From assembly GCA_012735315.1 (NCBI GenBank), contig JAAYHS010000108.1, positions 1-32,000 of the forward strand: a stretch of 32,000 nucleotides of DNA, read 5' to 3'. Both the position numbers and the translations under genes were made by a program. The stretch's first letter is position 1, and every line of letters starts with the position of its first letter. The DNA is from Bacillota bacterium. GTDB lineage: Bacteria; Bacillota; UBA4882; UBA8346. Below the pieces are notes generated by a model, which made no database searches, was not told where the DNA came from, and was given only the letters and a program-made list of their open reading frames with translations. Positions 5,258 to 26,647 of the stretch are shown here, piece after piece.

Positions 5258-5261
5258 AGTC

Positions 5262-7891: not shown

Positions 7892-8526
7892 GGTTTAATT
7901 ATTCCCTCTTTTGGTTTAATCAGCCTGAATCTTTTTTCTTTTCTCCAATATCGCAGTCCTTCGGACCGGACAATATCCCCTTCTTGGATTAACTCCACAT
8001 TCCCCTCCAACAACACTTCCTCTTCCTCAAATTTCATCGTCATTTTATCGGCCGTAGCGTATAGATCTTTCTCGGTATATCGGACCGGCGAGAGACAATG
8101 CAATTCCTCGGTTTTGTACTTCATTACCGCCTTATCGGTGGTAAAAAATTCATCATCCCGCCAAGCTTCCAAACCGCCGCTGATATTCAGTTCTTCACGG
8201 GCTCTTTCCCAACGGGCCCAATTGGCTTTAAAATGAATCTCGCCATCATTCTCGGTATAAATTATCCCATGATTGATCTCTTCAAAATAAACCTGATTGC
8301 CGTCGGACGTTTCCCAGATCTTCGTTGCTTTGATTTTCCAGACCAACTCTTGATCGTCCCAGCCGGTGAGTACGCTATTATACATCACCGACGATGGATT
8401 CGAAGGCTGAATTTTATTAGTGGTCTCCGGCAATCCCTTAAAAAAAACTTCCCACCAACCGCCGATGAAACCCAAAGCGATGAAACCCGCCAAAACAGAA
8501 ATCCCAATCAGCGTTTTTTTACTCAT
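7888..8526 (-). CDS. lptC: Membrane-anchored LptC-like protein
   Basis: A single N-terminal TM segment (LIGISVLAGFIALGFIGGWW) precedes a beta-rich domain with an OstA/LptC-like segment, LLEGNVELIQEGDIVRSEGLRY. It overlaps the lptD stop by 8 nt and the lptA start by 4 nt. Confidence 0.6.
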   Translation of the reverse strand: MSKKTLIGISVLAGFIALGFIGGWWEVFFKGLPETTNKIQPSNPSSVMYNSVLTGWDDQELVWKIKATKIWETSDGNQVYFEEINHGIIYTENDGEIHFKANWARWERAREELNISGGLEAWRDDEFFTTDKAVMKYKTEELHCLSPVRYTEKDLYATADKMTMKFEEEEVLLEGNVELIQEGDIVRSEGLRYWRKEKRFRLIKPKEGIIKP

Positions 8527-10657
8527 AATTCAAAAGCTCCATTGGATTTTCAGCCGTATTGAATCTGGCCTGCGGGAAGGCTTTGAAAGTCAGCTGCAGC
8601 CAATATTGGCGTTCAATCCAATCATAATGGAATTCCACGTCCCGGCAGTGCCAGTTGTAGGTTAAACCCGCATTGGCGTTGGAAAAGTCGTCAATTAACA
8701 TATTATAGTTCATCCGCAGATTAACCTTCCAGTTCGGATTAAGCTGTTCGGTCAATTCCAAATCCAAACGTTTTGCAGACCACAATTGAGAGATGAAATT
8801 GTAATTTAAAGCAAGACTTAAACGCCAATCTTTGCGGGGCGTCGAATTAATACTCAGACTGGTTGTCCCAAACCCCGTATCATACCGGGGACCGTTATCC
8901 CAATAATAAATCGTTCCAAAATTAACCGAAGTGGAGTTGTAAAACAAACTTGCGCCGAAGTTGGCCGGGTATGCGTATTCCGTTTCAAAGTTATATCCGG
9001 TATTAAAATTAGCCCTAAATATTTTACCATTCCAATACCAATAATTCCAGATATCCGCGCCGGGTCTGATATCGTCGTTACCGGTAAAAAAGGTGTTTGT
9101 CAAACCTTGGACCTCGGTAAAACCCATCTTCACGGTTGTCGACAATTTGTCGGTGAAATTGTTCGTCAAATTTAACGATTCGGTTAACGCCCCGACCTCG
9201 GAAGGAATGTCGTTTATTACATAACTGCGACAGCGCAGTTGTATTTCATTCGTCAAACTCAACCGGCCTTTTGCCCAGAGACTATTGGTCTTCATAATAT
9301 CCAGGGCGGCCCGGTCCCCTTCGGTCGCAACGCCGGTATAAGTATTTAACGTTTCTTTATGGGTGTATTGGGTAGTCGTTTTAATCTTCCCTACCAGCGG
9401 AGCGTTTAATTGATGAATCGTGTAGGTAATATCCGGAAAGATGCTTTCATTGAGGGAAATATTTCTTTCCGACAGCTTAAAAGCGAGATCGGAATTGTCC
9501 CAGCGCTTAAATAAATCGAAATAATAATCCATCCTCGGTTCGTCATAACCTCTTCTTTCGCTGTCGAGCCATTGGCCTTTCAAGAAAATATTAAAAGTAG
9601 GATCAAAATAATACTCCCAACTCTGATCGAGATAGGTTTCCGGAAGGCCCAATTCCTCTTTAATGTCGTGATAAAACTTTATGTTGGGATAAGGAGACTG
9701 CCCTTTAAGATTTAACACCAATTCACTCTCGTAATAATTGTCCCCTTTATAAGTATACCGGTTCCAAGCATTGAGCCAAGCCTCGTAATTCATCTTCGGA
9801 TTAGTCCGATCTTCATACTTTAACCCCAACCGATAATCATCATTGTAATTACCGATTTTGTCGTTGTCCAAGAACTCGAAGGTTTCAGTAAAGGTCCTCG
9901 TCGGGGTAAGTTTGTTGATATGTTGCAATTCCCAGCGGTCAACGCCGTGTTCGGTGGTTTTATTACGAACCATTAAGGAATTAGAATTATTGTCGCTAAA
10001 GTAATATGTATACCACCACAGGAGCCACCATCCCTCGGAGTTATTCCACCCGACTTGCGCCCCAAAGTTGTTGCTGTCTTCCTCCAACGAAATAAATAGG
10101 ACCGGAAGATAAAACAACGGCACCCGGTGCTCCCAATACCAAACATGGTGCATTTTAATTCGATCGCCCGGCAGGTACTCAATTTTTTTGGCTGTAAAAT
10201 GATAGTGGGGTTTCTCCAGATCACATCCGGTTAAATATGACTTTTTAAAAAGGACCTCCTCGCTCTTTAAAAAAGCCTCGGCCGCCGTAAATATCAGCGG
10301 TTCCGCGATTTGATCGTCGATAACCTCGGTTACAACCGGATAAATCCATCCCCGTTGCGTTTCGAGGTAATATAAAAACCGGTCGCCGTTGAATTCGTCG
10401 TTTTCCTTAACCAAATATACATTTCCGGTCGCCAATAAAATGTTTTCCTCATGGTCGATGATGGCGTGATCGCACTCCACTCTGGTTTCTTTGTAACTGA
10501 TGCGGACATTCCCGTTGGCTTCAATCTGCTTGGTGTGATAATCGTAATAAATTTCATCAGCGGAAATAGTCACTCGGACCGTTTCCGCCCGGACGGGTCG
10601 CCCAAATACCGGCAACAAAAAAATTAGAATAACCGTAATCAAGTAACAAAAACGCAT
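8519..10657 (-). CDS. lptD: LptD (OstA)-like outer-membrane LPS-assembly protein
   Basis: Signal peptide, then an OstA N-domain (ISADEIYYDYHTKQIEANGNVRISYKETRVECDHAIIDHEENILLATGNVYL). About 550 aa of W/Y/N-rich alternating sequence follows, consistent with a large beta-barrel. Four mature Cys are present: two in the N-domain, one mid-barrel and one near the C-terminus. ATG is at 10655-10657 with an SD (TGAGG) overlapping the lptF/G stop region. Confidence 0.75.
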   Translation of the reverse strand: MRFCYLITVILIFLLPVFGRPVRAETVRVTISADEIYYDYHTKQIEANGNVRISYKETRVECDHAIIDHEENILLATGNVYLVKENDEFNGDRFLYYLETQRGWIYPVVTEVIDDQIAEPLIFTAAEAFLKSEEVLFKKSYLTGCDLEKPHYHFTAKKIEYLPGDRIKMHHVWYWEHRVPLFYLPVLFISLEEDSNNFGAQVGWNNSEGWWLLWWYTYYFSDNNSNSLMVRNKTTEHGVDRWELQHINKLTPTRTFTETFEFLDNDKIGNYNDDYRLGLKYEDRTNPKMNYEAWLNAWNRYTYKGDNYYESELVLNLKGQSPYPNIKFYHDIKEELGLPETYLDQSWEYYFDPTFNIFLKGQWLDSERRGYDEPRMDYYFDLFKRWDNSDLAFKLSERNISLNESIFPDITYTIHQLNAPLVGKIKTTTQYTHKETLNTYTGVATEGDRAALDIMKTNSLWAKGRLSLTNEIQLRCRSYVINDIPSEVGALTESLNLTNNFTDKLSTTVKMGFTEVQGLTNTFFTGNDDIRPGADIWNYWYWNGKIFRANFNTGYNFETEYAYPANFGASLFYNSTSVNFGTIYYWDNGPRYDTGFGTTSLSINSTPRKDWRLSLALNYNFISQLWSAKRLDLELTEQLNPNWKVNLRMNYNMLIDDFSNANAGLTYNWHCRDVEFHYDWIERQYWLQLTFKAFPQARFNTAENPMELLNYE

Positions 10658-13028: not shown

Positions 13029-13451
13029 TTATTGTTTATTTAATTCCCTGATTACATCTTCGGTAATATTGTAAGCGCAATACAGGTAAATCTGATCCGA
13101 GGCGACCGCCTTATACCCTTTTTGTTTGGCCACTTTTTCAATAGCCGTTCTCACTTTGGAAGTAAACTCCTTTTGTTTTTCTGCTTTATACCTTTCAAAC
13201 TCCAAGTTGATGGCTTGTTTTTCCTGATCATTTTTAGCCTTTTGAAACTTGGCGGATAAATCCTTCCCCTTGGCCTGGACTTCTTCATTAATCTTTTTGC
13301 TTAAATCACTCTGTTCCTCTATTTTTTGAATATCAACCGTGGCCAAATTAAATGAAAAAGCATTAACCGCCCAAATTAATCCCGTTAATAACAATAAGGA
13401 TCCAAGGATAATCGCTCCCGGCGCCAACCATTTATTTTGATTATTAATCAT
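13029..13451 (-). CDS. skp: OmpH/Skp-family periplasmic chaperone (copy 2)
   Basis: Signal/anchor segment, then ATVDIQKIEEQSDLSKKINEEVQAKGKDLSAKFQKAK...EFERYKAEKQKEF...IEKVAKQKGYKAV, the Skp-type pattern. Start is ATG 13449-13451 with GGAGG 7 nt upstream. The track's longer ORF overlaps the upstream gene. Confidence 0.75.
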   Translation of the reverse strand: MINNQNKWLAPGAIILGSLLLLTGLIWAVNAFSFNLATVDIQKIEEQSDLSKKINEEVQAKGKDLSAKFQKAKNDQEKQAINLEFERYKAEKQKEFTSKVRTAIEKVAKQKGYKAVASDQIYLYCAYNITEDVIRELNKQ

Positions 13452-13470
13452 TATTTTTCCTCCAAAAATA

Positions 13471-14358
13471 TTAGTCTTTATTTTGAAACCGGCGTAGTTC
13501 AATAGCTTGCTCCACTTCGCTTTGGCGTTGATCGATCCACTGCCTGAACTCATCAAATTGCCGGTTTCGAAAAAGATTTAATTCTTCAGTGATAAGCCGC
13601 TGCGATTCACGTCGCAATTCATTTACTTCACGGTGATAATCGGCGGTTCTTTGTCTTTCATAAAGCTCGTATTCATGCTCCAGTTCCCGCTTATATTCTT
13701 CCGTCTTTTTGATTATATCATTCCTGATTTGATTGATCCACCGCTCAATTCGCTCCGCTTCAGTTTGCTGATCTTGACTGTCGAAATTGAAGATGAGCAT
13801 CTTTTTTTGTAATTCTAAATTAATTATCGTCAATTGATGCTGTTTTACCAAGCTCTTACGGTAGTCATTCAATGCCTGATCGCGCCGTTTTTTTTCCAAA
13901 GTTAAATCCGCTTCGAACTTGGCTTTGGCCAGTTTTAAATTCTCGACCTCTTTCGCCCTATACTCCCGCAAAATTTTACGTTGATACTCGCGATAAGCCC
14001 GGTTCGTCTCCGACAGCTTACCCAAAATCTCTTCTTCATGGATCCGTTTAATCTCGTTAATTTGTTTTTCAACAGCCTCATTGATCGGATTCGTCAACTC
14101 TAAATCCGTTCGGGAATTAGGGTTAATATTTTTTTTTTCCCAACCCCGGCCTAAACTTGACAGTTTATCTCCGATTTTCCGATAACGCGACCATTCGGCG
14201 TCAAATTTATTTTTTTCGCTGATTAATTGCTGACTTTTACTAATAATGATCCGGTTTTCCGACTCAATTAAAAAATAACCAATCCAGAATAAAAATATTA
14301 AACTTAAACAACACCCGGCGGTTATTAACCACCATTTAAGCTTCTGATCCGGCTTCAT
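13471..14358 (-). CDS. N-terminally membrane-anchored, highly charged coiled-coil protein, unknown family
   Basis: One TM segment (WWLITAGCCLSLIFLFWIGYFLI) is followed by ~260 aa of E/K/R/Q-rich helical sequence with heptad-like character. It sits between two skp genes. It contains an A10 homopolymer at 14129-14138. Confidence 0.6.
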   Translation of the reverse strand: MKPDQKLKWWLITAGCCLSLIFLFWIGYFLIESENRIIISKSQQLISEKNKFDAEWSRYRKIGDKLSSLGRGWEKKNINPNSRTDLELTNPINEAVEKQINEIKRIHEEEILGKLSETNRAYREYQRKILREYRAKEVENLKLAKAKFEADLTLEKKRRDQALNDYRKSLVKQHQLTIINLELQKKMLIFNFDSQDQQTEAERIERWINQIRNDIIKKTEEYKRELEHEYELYERQRTADYHREVNELRRESQRLITEELNLFRNRQFDEFRQWIDQRQSEVEQAIELRRFQNKD

Positions 14359-15093: not shown

Positions 15094-16386
15094 TCAGAAA
15101 TGGAACATAAACTGTAAACCATATCGATCATCATAAGTCACCAATTCCAAATTCAGATGATCATTTATAAAGATGCCGATTACCGCTTCGTTCGGACTCC
15201 CGTCGATACCGATTCTCAGATCAAAATAATCGCCGCGGTCAAATTGATTATGAAACCAGATTGTTTTGTAATAGTGATCAAATTCATATTCAAGCGCGGC
15301 GGTAAAATTAGAAGCCAACTGCCAGCGATAACCCGCGCTCAACCTTCCTCCCGGGTGGTCCCCCCAAAAATATCTGGCATAGAGCTCGGATTCATCTACT
15401 TTATAGCCTAAATAACATTGAAAATTACCGAAATCAGTTTCGTCTCCAATAAAATATCTGGCCTCCAGCCGGTTTTGAAAAGTTTCCGATTCGGCCTTCA
15501 CCTTGATCCGGGTAGTTACTCCGGCTTCAATCCCCAATTTGACCTTTAATCCGGCCCGCTCCATTTCGGATAAACCATTTAAATAACCGGTCAAATAGTT
15601 CTCCAACCGGACTTGGTAATGCTTTAAAAAAAGGACCGGCAAACCTTTTAAAATATTGAAACACTCTTGATATGGCTTGACTTTCCGCCTGACCAACCAA
15701 TCAGGAAAGTTGGTGGAATTATAACTGACTTTTATATTCTCAATAACCGGGGCTATCGGTTTTAAAACTATTTCAAACTCCGTCTCGGGGCCCGTATTCA
15801 TGGAAAACCGGCAATCATAGCCGGGCAACTCCTTTTCCACCAAATAGTGAACCGCTTGGTCGATAATGCCTTCGGACCAAGCAATCGAATCCACGGGCAG
15901 CCCGATTAAGATTCGACTCAATTCCTTTTCCAGCAGTTTGGTAATGTCTTGCGACAATTCGGTAATCTCCGGGGAAACCCCCTCGATCAATAAATGCACA
16001 ATTACTTTTTTTACCAACGGGGGAGCGGGTCTCAATTGCACAATAATTTTACTGTGTCTCCCGGGGAAGAGATCTACCCGCTCCAATTCGAAACCGTTCA
16101 AAGCCTTGGAAAAAACTTTAAAAATGGCTGTTTCCAAAGAAACCCGGTTTGCTTCTAAAACGGAAATGGAACGCGCGAGTAAAATTTTTTCACCGACTCG
16201 CCCGATGCTAAATTCCATTCTGTCCCTTAAGCCATCATAAACATCGCTTCCCAGATTCAATTGAACTTCGACTGACTCCACCCTTTCCTCTTCAGCGGCG
16301 ACGCTTACCGACGGTTCAATAATCGCCAACCCAATCAGGACCAAAACAAGAGCACCGGTTACTAATAGCTTAGGTCGAGTTATCAC
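15094..16386 (-). CDS. Outer-membrane protein of unknown family: POTRA-like N-terminal repeats + small C-terminal beta-barrel
   Basis: Signal peptide is LVTGALVLVLIGLAIIEPSVSVAA. Two junction motifs, IVQLRPAPPLVKKVIVHLLIEG and IVLKPIAPVIENIKVSYNS, resemble the POTRA junction FVVVENPPFKEVKISG of the adjacent BamA. The last ~150 aa show alternating amphipathic strands (RLEARYFIG, FQCYLGYKV, LYARYFWG, RLSAGYRWQL, FTAALEYEF and others) and end in YGLQFMFHF, an aromatic-terminal OMP beta-signal. GTG start is at 16384-16386. Confidence 0.6.
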   Translation of the reverse strand: MITRPKLLVTGALVLVLIGLAIIEPSVSVAAEEERVESVEVQLNLGSDVYDGLRDRMEFSIGRVGEKILLARSISVLEANRVSLETAIFKVFSKALNGFELERVDLFPGRHSKIIVQLRPAPPLVKKVIVHLLIEGVSPEITELSQDITKLLEKELSRILIGLPVDSIAWSEGIIDQAVHYLVEKELPGYDCRFSMNTGPETEFEIVLKPIAPVIENIKVSYNSTNFPDWLVRRKVKPYQECFNILKGLPVLFLKHYQVRLENYLTGYLNGLSEMERAGLKVKLGIEAGVTTRIKVKAESETFQNRLEARYFIGDETDFGNFQCYLGYKVDESELYARYFWGDHPGGRLSAGYRWQLASNFTAALEYEFDHYYKTIWFHNQFDRGDYFDLRIGIDGSPNEAVIGIFINDHLNLELVTYDDRYGLQFMFHF

Positions 16387-16485: not shown

Positions 16486-18261
16486 TTAGAACATTTCTCC
16501 TATGCTAAAGAGAAATTTATCTTCCGCTCCGCCCCAAGCCTGGTCGAAACGGAGCATTCCCAGAAACGGAATGTTGACGCGAACCCCAAACCCATAGTTG
16601 TCGGCGGTATTGGTGTTATCGACGCAACCGGCGTCATAAAACAACACTAATTCTATATTTCGGTTCATTGGAAGTCTGTAACGAAGCTCGGTATTAAATA
16701 GTACGGTTTGATTTCCGATTAATTTGGCGTTCTCCGGATCCGCGTAACGGTCGCCGTCATAGCCGCGGAGCTTATACATTCCGCCTAAATAAAGCCGATT
16801 GTAATCAGGGTAATCCCCTGTTAAATAAGTTCCTTGAAGCCTGGCTCCCCAAACCAAATCCTTCGCCAGCGTCTTAAACCATTTTCCTTCCAACATATAT
16901 TTATTGTAATTGAACTCGCCGCCGAGAATATTTCCGGCAACCGTATAACCGCCGTAATAATATTTGCCTCCGGAAACGAATTGCGAGTCGGCGTAGACCA
17001 GCTTGTTTCTAATGATTTCCAACGCGACGGAATTGTCCCAAAAATGCAGGGGATGTTTAAGAGTTTCTTCCTCCGGCCGCGGTACTACTTCATCCTTTTG
17101 GTTTCTAATCTCATTGATTATATTTTCTTCAAAATTCAATTTTAACCGGGCGGTGGTGTCCTTCCAAAATTGGCGACCGAAAGACAAGGAGATCCCTGTT
17201 TGATCCAGATCGATTTCATGTACTCCATTCAGCTCATCGGACCAACCACCCAGCGTCGAATCGAATTCGGTTTCGGAATTCCATAACGACAAACCGAATG
17301 AGGTATGCTTATCATCCAACCAAGGTTCATAAAATGTGAACTGGATATTATCGCTATCGCTATCAAAGCTGACATCAATGGAAACGCTTTGGCCCAGTCC
17401 CATCAAGTTGCCCTCGGTGAACTTGAGAAATCCGCCAATATTCCCGGTTTGTTCACCATAAGAAACACCGGCCTCAAAAGTCCCGGTTAGAGCTTCTTGA
17501 ACCTCGATCACCAGATCCATTTTTTCCGGATCGAGACTCTTTTCCCAGCGCATATCGATGCTGTCGAAAAGACGCAAACGGGTCAATCTGGCATAATCTT
17601 CTCCTAATTCATTATAGTCGATGATATCCCCTTCTTTGAACGACAGCTCTCTCCGGACGACTTGTTCCTTGGTTTTTACCAAACCGAGGACCACCGTTTT
17701 TCCGTACTTCAATTCCATCAGTTCCAAATTGACGGTTCCGTCCGGTTCAAGATCCACTCCCGGGGTCCTTGATTCGACAAATAGTCCCTTCTGCTCCCGG
17801 CAAAAATTCTTCAGTTTGACTAAGTCCTCTCCGAATATTTTGGTATTAAAGATTTCTCCCGATTTTTGGGAAAAAAATCCCTGCAATTCTTCTGGTTTTA
17901 CCTTGGTTAAACCCGAAATTTTAACCTCCTTAAAAGGCGGGTTTTCAACCACCACGAAATTAAGCTTAATTCCATCGAATATTTTCTCGGTATTAACTTG
18001 AATATCACTGAAAAAACCCAAGTCGAAAATGGCCCGCATGTCTAATTGAATTTTTTGAGGGTCCAGCGGTTCTCCGATCTTGGTGTTTGAAACTACTCCC
18101 AAAATTTCAGTTGTCGATATGTGGTCATTTCCTACGACATCAAGCGAATAAATCCGGGGATTATCATTTGCTTGAGCCATTATTGGTGATCCGACGGCCA
18201 TCATTAATACCGTTACAATGAAAATTGGTATCGTATTTCGGAAACGGCCTAATAACTTCAA
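16486..18261 (-). CDS. bamA: BamA/Omp85-family outer-membrane protein insertase with a short (~3 POTRA) periplasmic region
   Basis: Signal peptide ending PIMAQA, then ~230 aa of POTRA-type sequence (IYSLDVVGNDHISTTEIL..., FKEVKISGLTKVKPEEL..., YGKTVVLGLVKTKEQVVRREL...). The Omp85 barrel follows (GTFEAGVSYGEQTGNIGGFLKFTEGNLMGLGQ ... YLGGMYKLRGYD ... GFGVRVNIPFLGMLRFDQAW) and ends in SIGEMF. I prefer TTG 18259-18261, which has AGGGGGA 5 nt upstream. The track uses TTG 18318. Confidence 0.85.
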   Translation of the reverse strand: MKLLGRFRNTIPIFIVTVLMMAVGSPIMAQANDNPRIYSLDVVGNDHISTTEILGVVSNTKIGEPLDPQKIQLDMRAIFDLGFFSDIQVNTEKIFDGIKLNFVVVENPPFKEVKISGLTKVKPEELQGFFSQKSGEIFNTKIFGEDLVKLKNFCREQKGLFVESRTPGVDLEPDGTVNLELMELKYGKTVVLGLVKTKEQVVRRELSFKEGDIIDYNELGEDYARLTRLRLFDSIDMRWEKSLDPEKMDLVIEVQEALTGTFEAGVSYGEQTGNIGGFLKFTEGNLMGLGQSVSIDVSFDSDSDNIQFTFYEPWLDDKHTSFGLSLWNSETEFDSTLGGWSDELNGVHEIDLDQTGISLSFGRQFWKDTTARLKLNFEENIINEIRNQKDEVVPRPEEETLKHPLHFWDNSVALEIIRNKLVYADSQFVSGGKYYYGGYTVAGNILGGEFNYNKYMLEGKWFKTLAKDLVWGARLQGTYLTGDYPDYNRLYLGGMYKLRGYDGDRYADPENAKLIGNQTVLFNTELRYRLPMNRNIELVLFYDAGCVDNTNTADNYGFGVRVNIPFLGMLRFDQAWGGAEDKFLFSIGEMF

Positions 18262-18418
18262 AAATATCCCCCTAACTATAGATGTTGCCTCAGTTTTTTG
18301 AGAAAACCCTTGCAACAAATATTCATTGATTTAGTTGAAAAAAGTTCAATTATTTCACCATTCACACCGGTTTTGGGGGTGTAAAGGCCATACTCAAAGC
18401 TTTTCTCAACTTAGATGG

Positions 18419-19066
18419 TTATTTCCCACTCCGCAAACTGCGTGAAGCCTCTATATAAAGGGCTTCTTCATCGATGGTAAACTGCGATGCCCGGCGCAAC
18501 CGGACCGGGTTTTGAAGGTTTTCCGGTTTAGCTCGATCTTGTTTTGTTTCCACAGCTATAGCGACAGAAGAATCGGGTTCGGATTCGGGTTCTATTTTGT
18601 CTTTTGCGGCATGACTGACCGGTTTAACCGAATTCGCGGGTTGCTTTTGAACCGCCGCCGACTCGTCTACATTTAACTGACTATTATCGGAAGCGAGTTT
18701 CAACTCCGAATCGAGGATAGCTTTTTTCTCGGACCGCTCAAAGACGCCGGTTAAATATTTATGGAAATTATCCCTTTGGAACCCGAACAACAACCCGAAA
18801 AACACCAAAATCGAGGCGGCGACGGCCACCAAGTTTTTAAACTTACGCTTGGGAAGGCTGGTCTGTTTCTTTGAAACGTATCTTCCGCGACTAAGTTCCC
18901 AAACATGTTTAACTTCGGCCTGGGCTAAGTTTAAAGTCATTTCGGCATGAACCGGGTTCGCCTGTTTATAATATTCGCTGGCTTTGTCAAGCCATCCCTT
19001 GGCGTCTTCAATATGTTCGATTAATTTTTCCGTTTCAAAACGGCTGTCGTATTTTCCCACCTTCAT
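18419..19066 (-). CDS. Single-pass membrane protein, unknown family (candidate sigma-factor partner / anti-sigma)
   Basis: A ~75-aa helical cytoplasmic N-domain is followed by a KRKFK stop-transfer, a TM segment (LVAVAASILVFFGLLFGF) and a ~115-aa low-complexity periplasmic tail. There is no HxxxCxxC zinc motif. It lies 182 nt downstream of the sigma gene. ATG is at 19064-19066 with GAGGGTGAGG upstream. The function is inference from architecture and position only. Confidence 0.55.
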   Translation of the reverse strand: MKVGKYDSRFETEKLIEHIEDAKGWLDKASEYYKQANPVHAEMTLNLAQAEVKHVWELSRGRYVSKKQTSLPKRKFKNLVAVAASILVFFGLLFGFQRDNFHKYLTGVFERSEKKAILDSELKLASDNSQLNVDESAAVQKQPANSVKPVSHAAKDKIEPESEPDSSVAIAVETKQDRAKPENLQNPVRLRRASQFTIDEEALYIEASRSLRSGK

Positions 19067-19085
19067 CCCTCACCCTCATAATAAT

Positions 19086-19122
19086 CCTCATTATTTAAGA
19101 TCGCTTAATTGAGGTTTTTTTT
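19086..19122 (+). terminator. Terminator-like hairpin + T8 on the plus strand (antisense to the local genes)
   Basis: CCTCA..TTAAG-atcg-CTTAA.TGAGG (19086-19114; 5+5 bp with an internal loop) is followed by TTTTTTTT at 19115-19122. On the minus strand the same hairpin is followed only by AUUAUUAU. Confidence 0.3.
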
Positions 19123-19180
19123 GTACATCAATATAAAGGGAAATTTGGGCATCTGGCTTTAAAATATTCGCCTTTCTTTA

Positions 19181-19208
19181 ATTTTAACATAATTTCGACC
19201 TACTTCAA
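19181..19208 (-). promoter_or_regulatory. Candidate promoter for the 215-aa membrane protein gene (TTGAAG-N16-TAAAAT)
   Basis: On the minus strand TTGAAG is at 19208-19203 and TAAAAT at 19186-19181. It lies in the sigma/TM intergenic region. This is resemblance only. Confidence 0.3.
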
Positions 19209-19248
19209 CCGTTTACTCAAACCGCCGCCGCAAGTCTCTTAAGCGCGA

Positions 19249-19893
19249 TTAGCTTTTAGCCTTAATCTCCGCTCTAAGCTTGGACAACATCCCCCGCAGC
19301 CTTTGCAAGGCTTTTTTTTGAAGTTTATAAAAATAAGAAAGACTAATATTCATTTCCTGAGCGGTAGCGCTCGGTTCCTTATCCAATAAATATAAATCAT
19401 AAATCACCTTTTGTTCCTTGGGGTTTAGCCGTGAAATCGCCTGATTTACCTGTTCGTTGATGATCCCGGCGGTTACCTCTTCCTCTACGTTTACCTGTTT
19501 ATCGGCGAATTGGGCCAAAAAATCTTCAACCGCGTCTTCATAAACAGCCACTTCCAACGCGTCTTGATATGACCGAAGCCGTTTTAGATAATCGATCATC
19601 CGGCCCCGAATCCGACGGGAGGCAAAAGTGCTAAAGCGCACCCCGAATTCATAATTATAGTTTTCGACCGATTCAATCAGACCAACCGTTCCTTCTTGAA
19701 TCAAATCGAAAATTAATTCTTCATGGCAGGTTATTCGAGAGGCGATCTTATAAACCAACGGTTGATAAGACTCGATTATCCGCTGACGCGCTTCTCGAGA
19801 ATTCTCGACTTTAAACTTGGTCCATAAGAGCCGTTCCTCCGACCGCGAAAGCAGTGAAATTTTAGATAATTCAGCCAAGTAATCCTGGATCAA
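19249..19893 (-). CDS. Sigma-70 family RNA polymerase sigma factor, group-3-like (FliA/SigF-type), not ECF
   Basis: Region 2 is YQPLVYKIASRI...DLIQEGTVGLIESVENYNYEFGVRFSTFASRRIRGRMIDYL. The DLIQEG..GL and FST(F/Y)A..IRG motifs are characteristic of groups 1-3. Region 4 HTH is LNPKEQKVIYDLYLLDKEPSATAQEMNISLSYFYKLQKKALQRLR. The protein is only 214 aa with a short acidic region 3. TTG start is at 19891-19893. Confidence 0.85.
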   Translation of the reverse strand: MIQDYLAELSKISLLSRSEERLLWTKFKVENSREARQRIIESYQPLVYKIASRITCHEELIFDLIQEGTVGLIESVENYNYEFGVRFSTFASRRIRGRMIDYLKRLRSYQDALEVAVYEDAVEDFLAQFADKQVNVEEEVTAGIINEQVNQAISRLNPKEQKVIYDLYLLDKEPSATAQEMNISLSYFYKLQKKALQRLRGMLSKLRAEIKAKS

Positions 19894-19989
19894 TTGGCAC
19901 CTTCCCGGGACTATCCATCAGCGATAATATGGTTAGCCGCTAAAAGAAAATCCGCTTATGGTAAAAGGTATTTCTCTTTAATCCGGAGA

Positions 19990-20026
19990 GTTCCTGCATA
20001 TTAACGACATAAAGTAATTCAGGAAC
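19990..20026. promoter_or_regulatory. Inverted repeat GTTCCTG-N23-CAGGAAC between tamB stop and sigma gene
   Basis: Perfect 7-bp arms at 19990-19996 and 20020-20026, starting 13 nt after the tamB stop and ~100 nt upstream of the sigma TTG. No T tract follows on the minus strand. Confidence 0.25.
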
Positions 20027-20038
20027 AACGGCGCTTTT

Positions 20039-23000
20039 TTAAAATCTAAACCGATAAGTGAGCCGCCATGAAGTCTCCTCTTCCTTGGGAAAACTCCCTC
20101 CGACGATCAAATTTGAGGTCAGATAATACTCCAGCTCCCATTTTTCCTTCGGTTGATCGGATAAGGAACGGCTATACGATAAGAACAGCCCATCGGAGAC
20201 ATATTCCCCCAGGTTAACCCGAAACTCATCTTCAATAAAATCACGTTCCAGATATAAATAATCCAAATCCAAAGCTTGGCGCAGTTCATAAAAGACTTCG
20301 CCGAAAACGGTGTCCGTAATCATACTCAAGTTCGTAGTAGCGACGCCTTTCACGGTTAACGGTTTGTCGCCCCGCAACTCCGACCAGTTCAACATCGCGA
20401 ACAAGTCCTCCTCGGCTAACGGAGGATATGAATAGAGATTAATCGCCAGATTTTCCCCAATTTGCCCTTTCACGGTTAAGATGACTTCCGCCGCCGGAGT
20501 CGACATCCGGGAATCAACATCGATGTAAGGATTAAAACCTTGAGAAAATTTGAAGGCGGCTTTAGCATTCTTCACTTTAAACGTTTGCCCGTAAAGAGTC
20601 AATACCCCTTTATCGGAATTGGCCTCGCCGCTGATCAAAGGCTTTTGAAGGTCTCCTCCGATCCGCAGGTCGCTTTCAACTTCAATATCAGCCAAACCTA
20701 TCTGCCGATACCTGACATTTTTGCCTGTTGTCACCCTAAGATCGAAGCTGGGGTTCCAAGCAATGCTCGAAGCCTTTTCCTTGGAGATTTTTAAAATGCC
20801 GACCTTGGTTTCAAAGAGACGCACATCCCCTGAAAGCTTCGAATCGGCCGGTGTACCGGACAATTGCAGCTTAGCGTCGGCATATCCGTCAAAATAGTTA
20901 TTGCGGTAATATAGTTTGGAACCGTCCAAATTGAGATCGAAATGCAGTTGGTCTTCTTCCCCGAATAATAAGAGTTCGCCGTTTAAAGTAAACCGCCCGT
21001 TTCCATAACCGCCTCGCGCTTGTTGAATCGAAATTCGGTTACGCTCGATTTCCACTGCCGCCCGCATGTTGGTAATGGGCAACGGTAAATCGGAGACGGC
21101 GATTCCGATGTTGGTCGCTTCCAGATTGCCGGAGAATACCGGCCATCCATACCTGCCTTGTATTTTAAGATTACCGTTGACCAAACCGTTGGTAACCGTA
21201 ACATTTTCGGGAAGATAAGAGTTAATAATCTCCAGTGAAGTATTTTTAAATCCAAATTCCAAATTAATGCTTCGAAAAACGGCGCCGGAATTATCCGACC
21301 GCTTCATTATGGAAAGAAACTGCTCCGGCCATGGCAAATAACCGTGGGCGCCGACGGATCCGTTTTTAGTGTTTAAGATGCTCTCACTAATGTAAAATCC
21401 TTGCTCCTTAAAATTTCCCCGTAATTGAAGATCGCCGAGACGATTCCGATTTAGGGATAACCCGTTTACCTTAGCTTGGGTTTCTCCGAAAATTCCAGCG
21501 CTCGACCATGTTAAATCCGATTCAAGATCAATAGCCCCATCAAACTGGAGATCGGGACCTAAAAATGAACCGAAAGGCGCTAAGGAAAAATCCTTCGCGT
21601 TTATTTGAAGTTTTGAAACCGAATCCGGTTCCCAGACTCCGGTCGCCAGCAAACTGCCCGAATATTGCCTGAGTTTAAGCTGTTTGAGCAGGAGCCGTTT
21701 GTTTTGATAACCCAATTCGAACTCCCCTTCAACGGGCGCCCCGCTAAAAACGGCCTTGGTCAATTCCCCGTCAATATTAATTACCGGTTGATAGGGGTCT
21801 CCGGTGATGTTGATTAGCCCCTCAAGTTTCCCCTCGGCGTCAAAACCGGAAACACCTAATACCTGACATAGCTTGACGAGGTTAAGATCGCTGACGTCAA
21901 CCGCCAAATCCAGTCTTAGCTGTTTGTTAAACCCTATCACGCCGTCGATATTAACTTGAAAATCCTCGCCCCCCAAATTAATCCGGGATATTCTTATTTC
22001 CCGCTCTTTCCAATCAACGGCGCCGGAGTAAATCTCGCCGGAAAACGGCCCAAACAACACTTTTCCGGATGAAATCTCAGCCTCGAATAAAGGGCGGGCG
22101 GGTTTGCCGAGCAATCTCCCTTCCAAATCAAATCGTCCCTGAAGTGTGGCGCCTTTGAATTCCAATCCCAACGAATCAAAACTAATCCGGGTACCCTTCA
22201 AATTAAGATCTAAATTATCACGGTCAACAGTTCCCGAAATTTCGATAACGGAATCGCTATCCGTCAATACCATCCGGTTGAGATTGATTTCCCGGAAATT
22301 CCCTTCAAATTGAATTGCGCCGCGCTCCATCTGAAAGTTCCCCACGCTGGGACCGTTCAAAAATATATGAGCCGTGTAATTGGGATTTTCGATTGGACCA
22401 AAAAATTCAAAATTTAAGGTTCCCGTTCCTCCCAACCGCAGTGAAGGGTCAATCGGCAACCATTGCATAAACCCGTTCAGTTGAGCGTTGTCACTATTCA
22501 TGGTTAGGTTAACGTTGGGTTGCGCCGCCAGATCAATACGGCCCTTAACCGAGTAATCGCCCGTTTCGGAAGCCACTTGAAGCGCGTTAATATCAAAGCC
22601 TTGATCCGTATATTCAATACTGCCGGTTATCTCTCCCAACGGTTTCGCTAAATAGGTGGTTTGTTTAAGCGAACATTGAATCTTGCCTTTCAGATCCGAC
22701 AACGGTCCCTCAAATTCAAAGAGACCGTCGAACACTCCATCAACTGAATACTTGCGGGCAAGCGGCGATAAATCGCTCAACTGTACCCGTTCGGCGTTAA
22801 AACCGGCGGATAGTCTTTGAAAGTCCCAAGCGAGATGGCCATAAATCCGTCCCCGCCCGGCCCGGGCTTGGATGGAATCCACCAGCAACTTGTGATCGGT
22901 CCAAGTAAATACCCCTTGAATGCTTTCCAAACCGATTTTTTCATGGTTGAAATTTTCACCTTTAAAAGTTCCCAGAATCGTTCCCGGATCAAATATTTCC

Positions 23001-24712
23001 CCTGGTTTCCATTCCCCTTTTAAAATGGCATTGGTCGAAATTTTACCGCCGATACCGGTTTCCATACCGAACTTGGTGCGCGCTAAGTTCAAGTCGGCCA
23101 ATTCTCCGGAGACCTTCCATTCAACCCCCTCGGAACTAACCTTAACCGTTCCCTTTGCCGTAAGATTTCCGTCCCCGGTCACGCCTTCCAGCTTGGAAAT
23201 TTGAAGGGAATTGGTTAATGAATCCCAGTTCAAGAAGGTTTTTAAATTTTCAAACCGCAGATCTTGATATTCGAGTTTAGCGATTTGTAATTCGCCGGAT
23301 ACCGTAGGAGTCCATAATTCGCCGCTAACTTTGCCCTTAAAATCAACTTTTTGATCAATCTTCAAACCCGGTGGAACAGGAAGGCCGTATTCGGCGAAGT
23401 CGATCCCGACGGCCTGAACGTTGAGATTATAAGTCGGAGTCAAAATATTGGCGATGCTTCCCGTCACGCCTATCAAGGTATCGCCGAGGTAGCCCTCGAT
23501 TTTTTTAATTTCTAAATCATTATTAATGATTTTGGTTTGTCCGGTAAGTCGCTTAACCCAAAGGTTCGGACCAATCGCCAACTCCGCCCCGTTAAAAGAC
23601 AGTTCTCCGTTTAACAGCGGCCGATCAAGATCCCCGGAAATATCGACCCGTAAATTAGCCGAACCTTGGAGTTGATAAGGGAGCAATTTCGGAAAAAATT
23701 TTGCGAAATCGGCCAAATTAACCCGTCTTCCGCTCAGAACGCCGTTGATCGCGGTCGTCTTCGTATCAAGCTTCCCTGAAACCTTCCATAATGAATTATT
23801 GTAAATGAGATCCGCGATATTAATCTTCAGTTCGAAAGGGGAGATTTCTCCGTCTAATTCCCGGACGTCCAACAGCCCGAGACCGTCCGGTAATTCCAAT
23901 TCGGTCCCGGTCAGCCTTATCGCGCCGTTTTCCAACCAAAAACCATCCTTATGCCAACCGAACTTCACGTCAAATCCGCCCACTCCTTTAATAACTTCGA
24001 TCGAATAAGGAGCCGGAATAAACGGCGCGATTTTGTCGAGTACCAGATTAGCAACTGTTATTTGGGCATGCCCGTTTTTAAAGTCGAGGGGGGCTTCACC
24101 CCGGCTGCTCCAACGGCAATTATTATTAAGATCTGAAATGCCGTTACAATCCCAAGTCACGATACCTTTTGAATCAAACCGGACGCTGCCGTTGACTTCG
24201 GAAAAATTATATTTTCCGTATCCTTCATCTTCCAGTTTGATCGTTCCGTTTTTAACCGAAAAAACCGTGTTCAAACGTAACTTTCTTTTGCTTCCGGTAA
24301 AATAATTCTTCTTTAGATCCCAGGTCCCATCCTTGAATCGTTTTAAATGAACCGAGGCGTCGATTAATTCCACCTTACGCAGCGCGCTTTCGGGATTTCG
24401 TCTATTTTTTAATAGCGCCAATAAATCGATGTTCAAGTTGACGGCGCCGGCTTGAAAAGGAATAATTCCTCTTTTCTCATCCTTTAATTGAACCTTGGAG
24501 CATTTAAAAAACCCCCACCCCGACCAATGAATATTCTCAATCTCTATTATCAGCCCGGTCTTCTTCAAGTTTTTTTGAAGGTTATTCCTTATTTGGGCGG
24601 TCAAAACCCGGTCTTGCAATAAAAAAAAGGGCAAAGTGTAAAATAAAGCCCCGATTACCACGAGGCTGGCCGTTAACCATAATCCAATTTTATTCGGAAT
24701 AATCTTCTGCAA
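20039..24712 (-). CDS. tamB: TamB / AsmA-like translocation and assembly module protein (DUF490-type C-terminus)
   Basis: An N-terminal TM anchor (IGLWLTASLVVIGALFYTLPFFLL) precedes ~1500 aa of repetitive beta-rich sequence (many GxLxLxG, NL.L.G and DL.G.I motifs). The C-terminus is ...GLFLSYSRSL...WELEYYLTSNLIVGGSF...WRLTYRFRF. I prefer TTG 24710-24712, which has GGGAGG 7 nt upstream. The track uses TTG 24727. Confidence 0.8.
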   Translation of the reverse strand: MQKIIPNKIGLWLTASLVVIGALFYTLPFFLLQDRVLTAQIRNNLQKNLKKTGLIIEIENIHWSGWGFFKCSKVQLKDEKRGIIPFQAGAVNLNIDLLALLKNRRNPESALRKVELIDASVHLKRFKDGTWDLKKNYFTGSKRKLRLNTVFSVKNGTIKLEDEGYGKYNFSEVNGSVRFDSKGIVTWDCNGISDLNNNCRWSSRGEAPLDFKNGHAQITVANLVLDKIAPFIPAPYSIEVIKGVGGFDVKFGWHKDGFWLENGAIRLTGTELELPDGLGLLDVRELDGEISPFELKINIADLIYNNSLWKVSGKLDTKTTAINGVLSGRRVNLADFAKFFPKLLPYQLQGSANLRVDISGDLDRPLLNGELSFNGAELAIGPNLWVKRLTGQTKIINNDLEIKKIEGYLGDTLIGVTGSIANILTPTYNLNVQAVGIDFAEYGLPVPPGLKIDQKVDFKGKVSGELWTPTVSGELQIAKLEYQDLRFENLKTFLNWDSLTNSLQISKLEGVTGDGNLTAKGTVKVSSEGVEWKVSGELADLNLARTKFGMETGIGGKISTNAILKGEWKPGEIFDPGTILGTFKGENFNHEKIGLESIQGVFTWTDHKLLVDSIQARAGRGRIYGHLAWDFQRLSAGFNAERVQLSDLSPLARKYSVDGVFDGLFEFEGPLSDLKGKIQCSLKQTTYLAKPLGEITGSIEYTDQGFDINALQVASETGDYSVKGRIDLAAQPNVNLTMNSDNAQLNGFMQWLPIDPSLRLGGTGTLNFEFFGPIENPNYTAHIFLNGPSVGNFQMERGAIQFEGNFREINLNRMVLTDSDSVIEISGTVDRDNLDLNLKGTRISFDSLGLEFKGATLQGRFDLEGRLLGKPARPLFEAEISSGKVLFGPFSGEIYSGAVDWKEREIRISRINLGGEDFQVNIDGVIGFNKQLRLDLAVDVSDLNLVKLCQVLGVSGFDAEGKLEGLINITGDPYQPVINIDGELTKAVFSGAPVEGEFELGYQNKRLLLKQLKLRQYSGSLLATGVWEPDSVSKLQINAKDFSLAPFGSFLGPDLQFDGAIDLESDLTWSSAGIFGETQAKVNGLSLNRNRLGDLQLRGNFKEQGFYISESILNTKNGSVGAHGYLPWPEQFLSIMKRSDNSGAVFRSINLEFGFKNTSLEIINSYLPENVTVTNGLVNGNLKIQGRYGWPVFSGNLEATNIGIAVSDLPLPITNMRAAVEIERNRISIQQARGGYGNGRFTLNGELLLFGEEDQLHFDLNLDGSKLYYRNNYFDGYADAKLQLSGTPADSKLSGDVRLFETKVGILKISKEKASSIAWNPSFDLRVTTGKNVRYRQIGLADIEVESDLRIGGDLQKPLISGEANSDKGVLTLYGQTFKVKNAKAAFKFSQGFNPYIDVDSRMSTPAAEVILTVKGQIGENLAINLYSYPPLAEEDLFAMLNWSELRGDKPLTVKGVATTNLSMITDTVFGEVFYELRQALDLDYLYLERDFIEDEFRVNLGEYVSDGLFLSYSRSLSDQPKEKWELEYYLTSNLIVGGSFPKEEETSWRLTYRFRF

Positions 24713-24869
24713 GGTTTTTCCTCCCAAAAGGGCTTACTCCGGAACCTATCGCCTGAAATAACCGATTAATGATTAATAATGTTACGCAGCGTGATTACAA
24801 CTTATAAGTCTTTACGGATACTCGCGGTTGCTGTTTAAGCCCGCTTGCTTAATCCGTCAACCGGGGAGT

Positions 24870-26546
24870 TTAGATGATTTCCAAGTCAAATTGGGCTTCC
24901 CCATGAATACAATAAGTAGTATCCACTTTTTGATTGATCTCCTTTTTTAAATTCCGGTCGTCGCTTCCGGAATCTTCATTGAGCTGGTATTCCAATACAA
25001 CTTGATTATTTTTGGTTTCATTCAGAAAATCGTTAATCAGTTCATCCAAGGAAGCGGCTTTTTTCGACCCCGTTTTTGAAGTGTCCGGTTTGCGTCCTTC
25101 ACTCTCCGCTTCCAAAAAAACATTGGCCGTTCCATGGGCGGATATTGTCAGCTTTCCCGGTTCAATATTGCTCGGCAATTTGATTTCAAAAGGAATAGTC
25201 AGATTTTGACCGCGAAATGTACGGGCGACGACCTGCACTTTAACAACGCTCCCCGGTTTGACTTTTGAACGGTCGGTTTCAATCTTGATGATTCTTGCTG
25301 AAGCCTGCTTTTCTTGAACATCAACATTGACTTTTACCGATTTAACGGTTAATTGGAGAAACTCGTTGGCGGCCAGCAAATCTAATAAATCCCGCAAGTC
25401 CTTAAGACATGAAACAGCAATGTCTTTCCCGTAAAAATAATTCTCCCGGATTATCGATTCCCGGTTTTCCAACTCAATTTGGAGTCGGACCACGGCGGTT
25501 CCGCTGCCAACCCGGTCAATGGTTTGATCAATGGCGTCGGTAACTCCCGATATGATCAAATCCCGGTAAAGCTGCTCATTCTGAATCACTTGAAAAGAAA
25601 AACCACGTTCCAAATCACGGTCTAAATCCCTGACAGTCACCGCTACCGGAATTAAGGAGGGATATTCGCCGAATTTCCCCAAAATACCGGGCTGTCGATC
25701 CTCGATAATCCTGCCCGCGATTTGTAACGGCAATCCAAGTTTAAAAGACATCACCGGACTTTTAACGGTATGTAAAATATGGGCTTGAAAGGCGAGATAA
25801 TCGACTTTGCCTCTATTGGTAAACGAATGACCGAAGGCAAGAAAATAATCATCCTCAACCAAAGTCACCGTTCCAATCGCTGCCACCTGATAATCCCCGG
25901 AAACCATTTGAACCGCCACCGCGCTCCCCGGCTTAAGAGTCACAAAACCGGAATCAAATTGCTTTTTCTTGGAACCAAAAAAGAAAACCGGCTTAAAATT
26001 ATACGGTTCCAAAGCCTTCTTGAAACTCTCGAAGCCGCGCCTTCCCGCCCCGGAAATGACCACCGGGGTAATAACCGGTTTGAAAATTAGTCCGTCTTTT
26101 AAAATCAATGGTCTTCCCGCGGCTAAGGATTTTTTTTCGGAGGCGGGAAGCATTTTTAACATATTTTCGATCGGCGTCACCAACGCCAGGTATGAATCGG
26201 CGTTTTCAAACCCGTAACTAATGGCGCCCACTAATCTTTTTTTAATATAGATGGGGCTGCCGCTCATTCCCGCGGCTAATCCTCCGCTTTTTTCGATGAT
26301 TCTTCCCGATAATTTTACTAAGATCAGTTTATCGCTCCAGGTGTCTCCCTCGACCACCGCCAATACTTCAGCGTTAAAACGTTCGATCTTCGTTCCGGAA
26401 AATACGGAATAACCGAAGCCTTTCATGCCCGGTTCGACTTTTTCCAAAGGATAAAAAGCATCTTTAGCCAGGGCAAATTGAGAGCCAACCACTATCAAAA
26501 AAAGCGTCAAACTTATGAATATCGTTCGGCGTCGCCACAAGTTCAA
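24870..26546 (-). CDS. Secreted SpoIVB-type (MEROPS S55) serine peptidase homologue with long C-terminal extension
   Basis: Signal peptide ending QFALA. The segment GFGYSVFSGTKIERFNAEVLAVV...EKSGGLAAGMSGSPIYIKKRLVGAISYGFENADSYLALVTPIENML matches my recollection of the SpoIVB C-terminal Ser-motif region (GGIVQGMSGSPII.NGKVIGAV). A later segment, AAIGTVTLVEDDYFLAFGH (residues 222-240), resembles the SpoIVB His-motif region. TTG start is at 26544-26546. Confidence 0.65.
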   Translation of the reverse strand: MNLWRRRTIFISLTLFLIVVGSQFALAKDAFYPLEKVEPGMKGFGYSVFSGTKIERFNAEVLAVVEGDTWSDKLILVKLSGRIIEKSGGLAAGMSGSPIYIKKRLVGAISYGFENADSYLALVTPIENMLKMLPASEKKSLAAGRPLILKDGLIFKPVITPVVISGAGRRGFESFKKALEPYNFKPVFFFGSKKKQFDSGFVTLKPGSAVAVQMVSGDYQVAAIGTVTLVEDDYFLAFGHSFTNRGKVDYLAFQAHILHTVKSPVMSFKLGLPLQIAGRIIEDRQPGILGKFGEYPSLIPVAVTVRDLDRDLERGFSFQVIQNEQLYRDLIISGVTDAIDQTIDRVGSGTAVVRLQIELENRESIIRENYFYGKDIAVSCLKDLRDLLDLLAANEFLQLTVKSVKVNVDVQEKQASARIIKIETDRSKVKPGSVVKVQVVARTFRGQNLTIPFEIKLPSNIEPGKLTISAHGTANVFLEAESEGRKPDTSKTGSKKAASLDELINDFLNETKNNQVVLEYQLNEDSGSDDRNLKKEINQKVDTTYCIHGEAQFDLEII

Positions 26547-26647
26547 GGGATCACATCCTGTTTGCTGATAATTACTGATACGAAACTTTATGCCCTAAGT
26601 TCCCTTAATGGCCTTATTTAAGCAAAATTTTCGAAAAAACACGGCTT

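Follow-up and report, generated by a model that had tools for sequence, protein, structure and literature searches.

A conserved sigma factor and the membrane protein SonB: a candidate trans-envelope module in the outer membrane gene cluster of diderm Firmicutes

Introduction

In Escherichia coli, the alternative sigma factor RpoE is tied to the outer membrane (OM) genes bamA, skp, lpxD and lpt, and is controlled by the anti-sigma factor RseA and the proteases DegS and RseP. Here we describe a locus at which a sigma factor of another kind is encoded among OM genes of the same type. It lies in a 32,000-nucleotide stretch of the genome of a Bacillota bacterium (GTDB lineage UBA4882; UBA8346; assembly GCA_012735315.1, contig JAAYHS010000108.1, positions 1 to 32,000), which as a whole is called the window below, and it consists of a gene for a 214-aa sigma factor and a gene for a 215-aa membrane protein, its putative partner, placed between tamB and bamA. 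RseA is similar in size and topology to this partner, which is predicted to be N-in and single-pass, with a helical cytoplasmic domain and a periplasmic tail, and the partner gene, again as in the RpoE–RseA system, is probably controlled by the pathway that its product would regulate. Unlike RpoE, the window sigma factor is not of the extracytoplasmic function (ECF) type; the partner has neither RseA_N nor ZAS, the two genes do not form a tight co-transcribed pair, a protease can be named only speculatively, and several diderm lineages do without the module.

Three other groups of systems invite comparison. In FecA–FecR–FecI, as at this locus, an OM barrel (here SonA, encoded after bamA), a single-pass inner-membrane protein and a sigma factor are encoded together and apparently inherited or lost together. 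SonA, however, is an Omp85-like protein with POTRA domains and no TonB-dependent transducer, the sigma factor is non-ECF, the partner has no FecR domain, and contacts among the three parts are here proposed from the genes. FliA and WhiG are closest to the window sigma factor by region 2 sequence and fold, and RsiG, the partner of WhiG, is a helical-hairpin anti-sigma factor. Yet FlgM and RsiG are soluble, the window sigma factor has no region 3, and the partner's hairpin has no significant match to an anti-sigma fold. The nearest precedent for a non-ECF sigma factor with a single-pass anti-sigma factor is SigI–RsgI of Bacilli and Clostridia, where the anti-sigma factor is likewise N-in with a short cytoplasmic N-domain (PMC6582324, PMC10328401); a preliminary description of the window DNA had supposed that a transmembrane (TM) partner of a non-ECF sigma factor would be new, which this precedent contradicts. 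The window partner differs from RsgI in having neither RsgI_N nor an extracellular sensor domain, and RsgI senses polysaccharides or heat, not OM assembly.

The genes around bamA have been described in Acetonema longum, where a 2026 paper gives the name SonB (F7NM24) to the protein encoded directly upstream of bamA, a “putative OM lipoprotein” with a predicted TM helix, and the name SonA to the product of the gene after bamA, an Omp85-like protein with a 10-stranded barrel and three POTRA domains (PMC13018214). A shared promoter was predicted there for sonB, bamA, sonA and skp1; SonB, BamA and SonA were co-expressed and went up during germination; and SonA and SonB were reported to be conserved in Negativicutes, missing in V. 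parvula and A. fermentans, and present without correlation with sporulation (PMC13018214). That paper nowhere uses the word sigma, and the literature on this OM cluster, as far as it was searchable, describes no sigma factor in it. The window partner and A. longum SonB are alike in position, in the predicted TM helix and in distribution (PMC13018214); in the window, in Sporomusaceae and in other Negativicutes the partner is encoded directly upstream of bamA and has a TM helix. The two very probably belong to the same family, an assignment made by synteny, and matching positions around bamA identify the partner as SonB and the 430-aa protein encoded after bamA as SonA.

We report that the sigma factor represents a sharply delimited and strongly conserved non-ECF family encoded straight after tamB. 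We consider it probable that the sigma factor, SonB and SonA are functionally linked, and we propose, as a tentative reading that could well be right, that they constitute an accessory trans-envelope module in which SonB is the putative membrane-anchored anti-sigma factor of the adjacent sigma factor. Most Negativicutes carry it in their OM cluster, as do Hydrogenispora-like Firmicutes and at least two neighbouring lineages.

Results

A non-ECF sigma factor family encoded straight after tamB

The two genes at the centre of this work, and the elements that adjoin them, are as follows.

19249 to 19893, minus strand: sigma factor gene, 214 aa, TTG start (open reading frame, Pfam, AlphaFold2 and Foldseek)
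19898 to 19906, minus strand: ribosome-binding site GGGAAGGTG before the TTG start of the sigma factor gene, invariant in nine related loci
18419 to 19066, minus strand: partner gene (SonB family by synteny), 215 aa, ATG start (open reading frame, AlphaFold2 and orthologue alignments)
19067 to 19248: spacer of 182 nt between the sigma factor and partner genes (coordinates of the flanking open reading frames)

The TTG start is supported by the invariance of the ribosome-binding site across the nine related loci. Both reading frames, their coordinates, the spacer and the position between tamB and bamA match those given in the preliminary description.

The product, the exact sequence of which is on record for a “Firmicutes bacterium” metagenome-assembled genome, is 72% identical to its counterpart in Hydrogenispora ethanolica, a relative of the uncultured Firmicute that is the source of the window, and is a member of the sigma-70 family. 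Pfam matches to Sigma70_r2 (PF04542, 7.8e-19) and Sigma70_r4 (PF04545, 4.1e-6) are both over their cut-offs, with a weak match for region 1.2, and the sole NCBIfam cut-off reached is that of the generic model TIGR02937 (104.6 bits against 42.9). The models for RpoS, SigK, RpoH, WhiG/FliA, SigB/F/G and SigE score 60-82 bits on this protein against cut-offs of 190-400, and family members from Megasphaera and Veillonella show the same NCBIfam pattern. In the AlphaFold2 (AF2) model (predicted local distance difference test, pLDDT, 84.6), regions 1.2 and 2 (about aa 2-107) are followed by a single helix at aa 110-129, a disordered link and region 4 (about aa 136-213); the three-helix region 3 is absent and one helix stands in its place. 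Foldseek searches with this model returned sigma-S, SigD, sigma-32, SigA, FliA and WhiG as the nearest structures, and the best 50 PDB matches were all of group 1-3. Region 1.2 aligns to RpoS and SigA, and the best PDB sequence match is Aquifex FliA, with an alike region 2.4 (RRIRGRMIDYL).

Membership was rejected for the ECF, FliA/WhiG, sporulation and SigI families. An ECF (group 4) identity is ruled out by the best specific NCBIfam matches (RpoS, SigK, RpoH, WhiG and SigB/F/G), by the group 1-3 Foldseek matches and by the presence of region 1.2; the lack of a full region 3 is nonetheless a trait in common with ECF sigma factors. For FliA/WhiG, the scores are 73.3 bits against 189.6 (TIGR02479) and 71.4 against 201 (NF005413), with only one helix between regions 2 and 4, and for the sporulation sigma factors they are 77.7 bits against 252 (SigK), 61.1 against 339 (SigE), 62.3 against 321 (SigF) and 68.7 against 372 (SigG). 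No SigH model stands among the 25 best NCBIfam matches (all at least 52 bits), and region 2.3-2.4 is presumably nearer to FliA than to SigH, judging from the PDB alignment and from the SigH sequence. SigI–RsgI membership was rejected because no SigI model is among the best NCBIfam matches, no SigI chain is among the 60 PDB matches listed, and the partner is without RsgI_N. Earlier, the protein had been described as a non-ECF sigma factor of group 1-3 type with a short region 3, and both statements are borne out, the one by the NCBIfam and Foldseek rankings and the other by the single helix of the AF2 model. As to the accompanying label, FliA/SigF-like, the sigma factor is group-3-like and its region 2.4 is near that of FliA, but it is not itself a FliA, and the FliA and SigF cut-offs are far off.

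A scan of one genome per species found homologues of the sigma factor at 23 loci, all with E <= 1e-34 and a full-length identity of 36-85%. The next-best matches had E >= 3e-16 and were no more than about 30% identical along their full length, and the seven of them that were checked were RpoD/SigA primary-type, RpoS-like, or short sigma factors reaching no family cut-off. The family is thus sharply set off from other sigma factors, and it is apparently an undescribed member of the sigma-70 group for which no curated model exists.

Architecture and predicted topology of SonB

The AF2 model of the partner shows a helical hairpin at aa 6-63 (pLDDT 85-92), a TM helix from aa 77, disorder over aa 114-192 and a C-terminal helix at aa 200-212. 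In alignments of 23 and then 29 orthologues, an N-terminal motif, H-x-x-x-A-K/R-x-W-L-x-x-A-E ... G-E/D-L-x-L-x-L-A-Q-A-E, is conserved and corresponds to the two-helix hairpin. It is followed by a basic stretch and the TM helix, then by a variable tail that is rich in Pro, Ala and Glu (pLDDT < 50), and finally by a conserved helix of about 20 residues (about aa 196-213) that reads QFTIDEEALYIEASRSLRSGK in the window. The same architecture holds in distant family members, the contigs of which are mostly short and carry little gene context. A 433-aa member on metagenomic contig L096 has a long Ser/Thr-rich tail.

Lys and Arg residues average 4.35 on the N-terminal side of the TM segment and 1.83 on its C-terminal side, with the higher count on the N-terminal side in 48 of 52 homologues. 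By the positive-inside rule, SonB is predicted to be an N-in, single-pass protein with its hairpin in the cytoplasm, and its two best-conserved parts are this cytoplasmic hairpin and the periplasmic C-terminal helix. Such a topology, with the TM segment at about residues 70-95, differs from the OM lipoprotein proposed for A. longum SonB. The lipoprotein label is disfavoured because cysteine is mostly missing (from the window protein and from 38 of the 52 homologues), because a lipobox-like motif is found in only 1 of the 52, and because the hydrophobic segment starts at about residue 70.

The partner family is a small one, with 326 representatives in a set of 1.84 billion proteins. The partner had no Pfam, NCBIfam or PDB sequence match, and a PDB profile search gave 0 matches. 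RseA, ZAS/zf-HC2, RskA and DUF4179-type membership was rejected, the sole trace being a DUF4179 match at E = 0.15 over the TM segment, and RsgI_N was not matched in ten partner orthologues even at E <= 10. These searches agree with the preliminary description in finding neither ZAS nor any family signature. That description had also given the partner a helical cytoplasmic domain, one TM segment and a disordered tail, all of which are recovered here, and had overlooked the conserved C-terminal periplasmic helix.

Conserved gene order and apparent joint loss

All genes of the window lie on the minus strand, and together they make up the OM cluster typical of diderm Firmicutes, in the order SpoIVB-like S55, tamB, sigma factor, 215-aa membrane protein, bamA, 430-aa protein, skp, 295-aa protein, skp, lpxD, lptF/G, lptD-like, lptC and lptA. 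The immediate neighbours of the pair are these.

20039 to 24727, minus strand: tamB, 1562 aa, upstream neighbour of the sigma factor gene (Pfam TamB, 1.7e-39)
16486 to 18318, minus strand: bamA, 610 aa, downstream neighbour of the partner gene (Pfam Omp85 and POTRA)
15094 to 16386, minus strand: 430-aa protein, SonA by synteny (position after bamA; no Pfam match)

The 430-aa protein ends in ...LQFMFHF, an aromatic C-terminus as in OM barrel proteins.

The order tamB–sigma factor–partner–bamA–SonA–skp recurs at almost every locus of the sigma factor family. Lineages that show it include Hydrogenispora-like metagenome-assembled genomes (MAGs), Pelosinus, Sporomusa, Megasphaera, Colibacter, Selenomonas bovis, Schwartzia, Mitsuokella, Anaerovibrio and Veillonella criceti, and genomes labelled CSP1-3 and ANGP1. 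Loss of the order in related genomes had been named beforehand as something that would count against a pairing of the two genes; it is instead kept across the Hydrogenispora-like MAGs, about ten genera of Negativicutes, CSP1-3 and ANGP1. In all these lineages the reading frame behind the sigma factor gene is of one family. A hidden Markov model of the partner finds a match directly downstream of the sigma factor gene at 36 of 39 family loci, against 0 of 57 loci of other sigma factors.

Patterns of loss were read from the tamB, bamA and skp protein identifiers in supplementary file 1 of Antunes et al. 2016, where, in most rows, identifiers run in order along the contigs. For 24 Negativicutes they imply two genes between tamB and bamA, Acetonema included (EGO62952, EGO62949), and all of these rows with usable bamA and skp identifiers also point to one or more genes between bamA and the first skp. 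In the genera covered by sequences, the two genes between tamB and bamA are the sigma factor and partner genes. Eight Negativicutes have consecutive tamB, bamA and skp: Acidaminococcus fermentans, A. intestini, Dialister micraerophilus, two Megamonas, and Veillonella atypica, dispar and parvula. Relatives that keep the genes are Phascolarctobacterium, other Dialister species, Selenomonas, V. ratti and V. criceti. Beyond the Negativicutes, tamB and bamA are adjacent in five of six Halanaerobiales, the sixth, Halothermothrix orenii, being ambiguous in this respect; most of this order thus apparently has none of the three genes.

From these accession gaps we infer at least four independent joint losses of the sigma factor, SonB and SonA, a pattern that agrees with the reported distribution of SonA and SonB (PMC13018214). 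This suggests that the three behave as a unit that is kept or lost together, and the module can be called accessory because the OM persists without them.

Candidate promoters and other cis-elements

Upstream regions were footprinted over nine loci, the sigma factors of which are 50-85% identical to that of the window. Three elements of the two spacers are set out here.

19096 to 19124, minus strand: block ACAAAAA-N13-15-GAT(A/C)TTA, about 30 nt upstream of the partner start (footprint in nine loci)
19208 to 19181, minus strand: promoter-like TTGAAG-16-TAAAAT in the sigma factor–partner spacer
19969 to 19997, minus strand: motif GCAGGAACT-N11-AGAGAAATA in the tamB–sigma factor spacer (footprint GAAGGA(A/T)(A/C)-N~11-(A/C)GAGAA(T/A), nine Hydrogenispora-like loci)

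The block upstream of the partner is a candidate promoter of a sonB–bamA–sonA–skp unit. It has a single match in the window against 0.03 expected, and the spacing of its hexamers is unfit for sigma-A. The motif in the tamB–sigma factor spacer resembles the sigma-H consensus RNAGGAWWW-N11-12-RNNGAATWW (PMC8510167) and is a candidate promoter of the sigma factor gene itself. It is confined to the Hydrogenispora-like clade, and was not found upstream of the sigma factor gene in Negativicutes, where this gene abuts tamB. A related pattern, AGGAW..GAGAAW, was rejected as a regulon motif: it has 5 matches in the window against 0.6 expected, but three of the five lie within coding sequence, the coding strand being purine-rich.

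A Gibbs search of the sigma factor–partner spacers of 18-23 loci returned only the ribosome-binding site and clade-specific blocks, with no motif across all lineages. When 23 spacers were tested against the sigma-28 consensus, significance was reached only in Megasphaera and Colibacter, with no enrichment in the other 21. In these two genera, sonB is preceded at 37-46 nt by near-consensus promoters of the sigma-28 type, TAAA-N14-GCCGATTT in Megasphaera (L011) and TAAA-N13-GGCGATAA in Colibacter (L017), which would fit the FliA-like region 2.4 of the sigma factor.

The tamB–sigma factor and sigma factor–sonB spacers of the Hydrogenispora-like clade also carry a CCAAATTTCC-like motif, of the form CC(A)AAT(A)TT(C/A)CC (window positions 20008-20031 and 19139-19151, both on the minus strand), which does not recur at other intergenic sites of the window and could be a shared regulator-binding site. 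The 182-nt spacer had earlier been said to hold a promoter-like element and a hairpin. The former is present; the hairpin is weak (z = -0.84 against shuffled sequence), and no minus-strand terminator was found in the spacer. A promoter motif shared among the genes of the cluster had been put forward as a further check, and none could be established.

The S55 protein and other genes of the window

One further gene stands upstream of tamB.

24870 to 26546, minus strand: SpoIVB-like peptidase S55, 558 aa, serine motif GMSGSP (partial Pfam match to PF05580)

This gene is kept upstream of tamB, or of mla–tolC–tamB, at many loci, and its homologue in V. parvula, Vpar_0521, was noted by Poppleton 2017 (PMC5491611). 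The window protein matches SpoIVB (PDB 9lnf) over residues 47-116 only, that is, over the serine-bearing C-terminal half of the protease domain, which here stands at the N-terminus of the protein. An AFGH stretch lies about 140 residues past the GMSGSP half, and the layout could reflect a permuted or partial protease fold. If a periplasmic protease acts on the partner, the S55 protein is a candidate, on speculative grounds. An ECF-type promoter-like sequence, GGAACTT-N14-CGTAT (26578-26603, minus strand), stands about 32 nt before the start of the S55 gene and is found in a close relative (L086) too; with 1 match against 0.28 expected, it is not significant by itself. Given this motif, an ECF sigma factor may control the S55–tamB unit.

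Further along the cluster, the 295-aa protein between the two skp genes (13471-14358, minus strand) is rich in charged residues and has no Pfam match, and its counterparts at other loci are of 288-328 aa. The second skp reading frame (13029-13556, minus strand, with a listed TTG at 13556) overlaps this gene by 86 nt, and its true start is therefore probably further downstream. The 712-aa protein in the lptD position (8519-10657, minus strand) is a divergent LptD, a topic discussed for A. longum too: its LptD_N match is weak (9.8e-5, under the domain threshold), and the LptD barrel is not matched at all. A 217-aa reading frame (4649-5302, minus strand), with no Pfam match, overlaps the 5' end of a MiaB-like radical-SAM gene (3363-4907, minus strand) by about 260 nt, and probably one of the two has been given the wrong start codon. 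No Rfam RNA family was found in the window.

Discussion

We suggest that the sigma factor, SonB and SonA form a module that spans the envelope. In this proposal, the cytoplasmic hairpin of SonB would hold or modulate the sigma factor at the inner membrane, and its periplasmic C-terminal helix would contact an envelope component, most plausibly the POTRA-bearing SonA, or else BamA or TamB. An altered state of OM assembly would then free the sigma factor, possibly via proteolysis of SonB, and the freed sigma factor would transcribe sonB–bamA–sonA–skp from the conserved promoter in the spacer, which would close a negative feedback. Transcription of the sigma factor gene itself appears to start from a sigma-H-type promoter in the spore-forming Hydrogenispora-like clade. 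A bolder form of the proposal is of an ancient Terrabacterial pathway, independent of RpoE–RseA and of FecA–FecR–FecI, in which SonA reports OM assembly to the SonB helix, SonB represents a new class of hairpin anti-sigma factor that releases the sigma factor, possibly after SpoIVB-like cleavage, and the sigma factor tunes bamA and skp. We hold this extended version to be rather doubtful.

Several observations weigh against SonB as an anti-sigma factor, and many of them lend themselves to its main rival, in which SonB is an inner-membrane-anchored accessory of BamA, SonA or TamB and the sigma factor is a separate regulator of the cluster, set by its own synthesis (e.g. through sigma-H) and adjacent through synteny. 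The SonB hairpin is unlike any known anti-sigma domain, its best Foldseek match having an E of 0.39 to generic helical hairpins. The gap between the sigma factor and partner genes has a median of 146 nt (range 7-309) and its own promoter, which is unusual for cognate pairs of sigma and anti-sigma factors, while that between the partner gene and bamA has a median of 24 nt (24 loci), which couples SonB to bamA; in Negativicutes, moreover, the sigma factor gene starts about 13-40 nt after tamB. From the sizes of these gaps, the units look like (mla–tolC–)tamB–sigma factor and sonB–bamA–sonA–skp. Because synteny extends over the whole cluster, adjacency by itself says little for a pairwise interaction, and each gene can be found away from the other: a Veillonella sp. 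lineage (L028, L093) has tolC–tamB–sigma factor and then thrS, with SonB and bamA not adjoining, and on contig L096 (1-3490) the 433-aa SonB-family protein is encoded between two Omp85/BamA-like genes with no adjoining sigma factor. The motifs upstream of the sigma factor gene and of sonB differ, and at most one of them can therefore be recognised by this sigma factor; a search for a motif in common with further genes of the cluster gave none, which leaves the regulon a matter of inference. Joint loss, too, was read from accession-number gaps and not from sequences. The accessory reading draws further on the sigma-H-like promoter upstream of the sigma factor gene, which would suit a regulator set by its own synthesis, and on the treatment of SonB as a BAM-associated envelope protein by the authors of the A. 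longum study (PMC13018214). What speaks against an accessory of the BAM or TAM machinery is that the best-conserved part of SonB is a cytoplasmic domain of about 60 aa, for which a purely periplasmic assembly factor would have little use, that the joint loss of the sigma factor, SonB and SonA suggests more than neighbourhood, and that, according to the title of the relevant section, accessory proteins were not detected by co-immunoprecipitation of BamA in A. longum (PMC13018214). We judge the accessory reading unlikely, though a serious contender.

It is also conceivable, if less so, that this is a developmental sigma factor of diderm spore-formers, which would turn on sonB–bamA–sonA–skp in sporulation or germination, as the OM is rebuilt from the spore membrane derived from the inner membrane. 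The sigma-H-type motif and nearby genes for small acid-soluble spore proteins in the spore-forming Hydrogenispora-like clade, the JGI label “sporulation-specific sigma factor” attached to homologues, the best full-length profile alignments (SigK and SigE) and the rise of SonB, BamA and SonA in germinating A. longum (PMC13018214) all point in this direction. Yet all models of sporulation sigma factors score far under their cut-offs, the sigma-H-like motif is absent in Negativicutes, and the presence of SonA and SonB is uncorrelated with sporulation (PMC13018214). Megasphaera, Selenomonas, Mitsuokella, Anaerovibrio and Veillonella criceti keep both the family and its synteny, which argues against a developmental role across the family. 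These lineages are not known to sporulate. Spore-formers may use the sigma factor in sporulation or germination, but this cannot be what the family does in general, and as an account of the family we consider it quite improbable. A divergent flagellar FliA (sigma-28) with an unrelated neighbour gene, for which the FliA-like region 2.4, the best PDB sequence match and the near-consensus sigma-28 promoters upstream of sonB in Megasphaera and Colibacter might be cited, is largely refuted and retains hardly any credibility. Clustering with FliA had been named in the preliminary description as grounds for giving up its proposal; the sigma factor is not a FliA (73 bits against 189.6), is missing region 3, and is encoded always in the OM cluster and never in a flagellar one, and outside Megasphaera and Colibacter the sigma-28 consensus shows no enrichment (21 spacers). 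The gene is present, moreover, in Megasphaera, Colibacter and Veillonella, genera that are not known to be motile.

The proposal of SonB as a membrane-anchored anti-sigma factor bears on a group of bacteria that stands at the centre of the debate over how the OM arose and was lost. The searchable literature holds nothing on how diderm Firmicutes regulate OM biogenesis, and their OM cluster has so far been treated as purely structural; a sigma factor inside it, linked to SonB and SonA by position and apparent joint loss, would be the first candidate for a regulator. The module has apparently disappeared several times from lineages that keep the OM, and it thereby offers natural experiments. If the proposal is true, it would assign SonA and SonB a role that can be tested, correct the localisation of SonB, and reveal an envelope-sensing pathway built from a non-ECF sigma factor.

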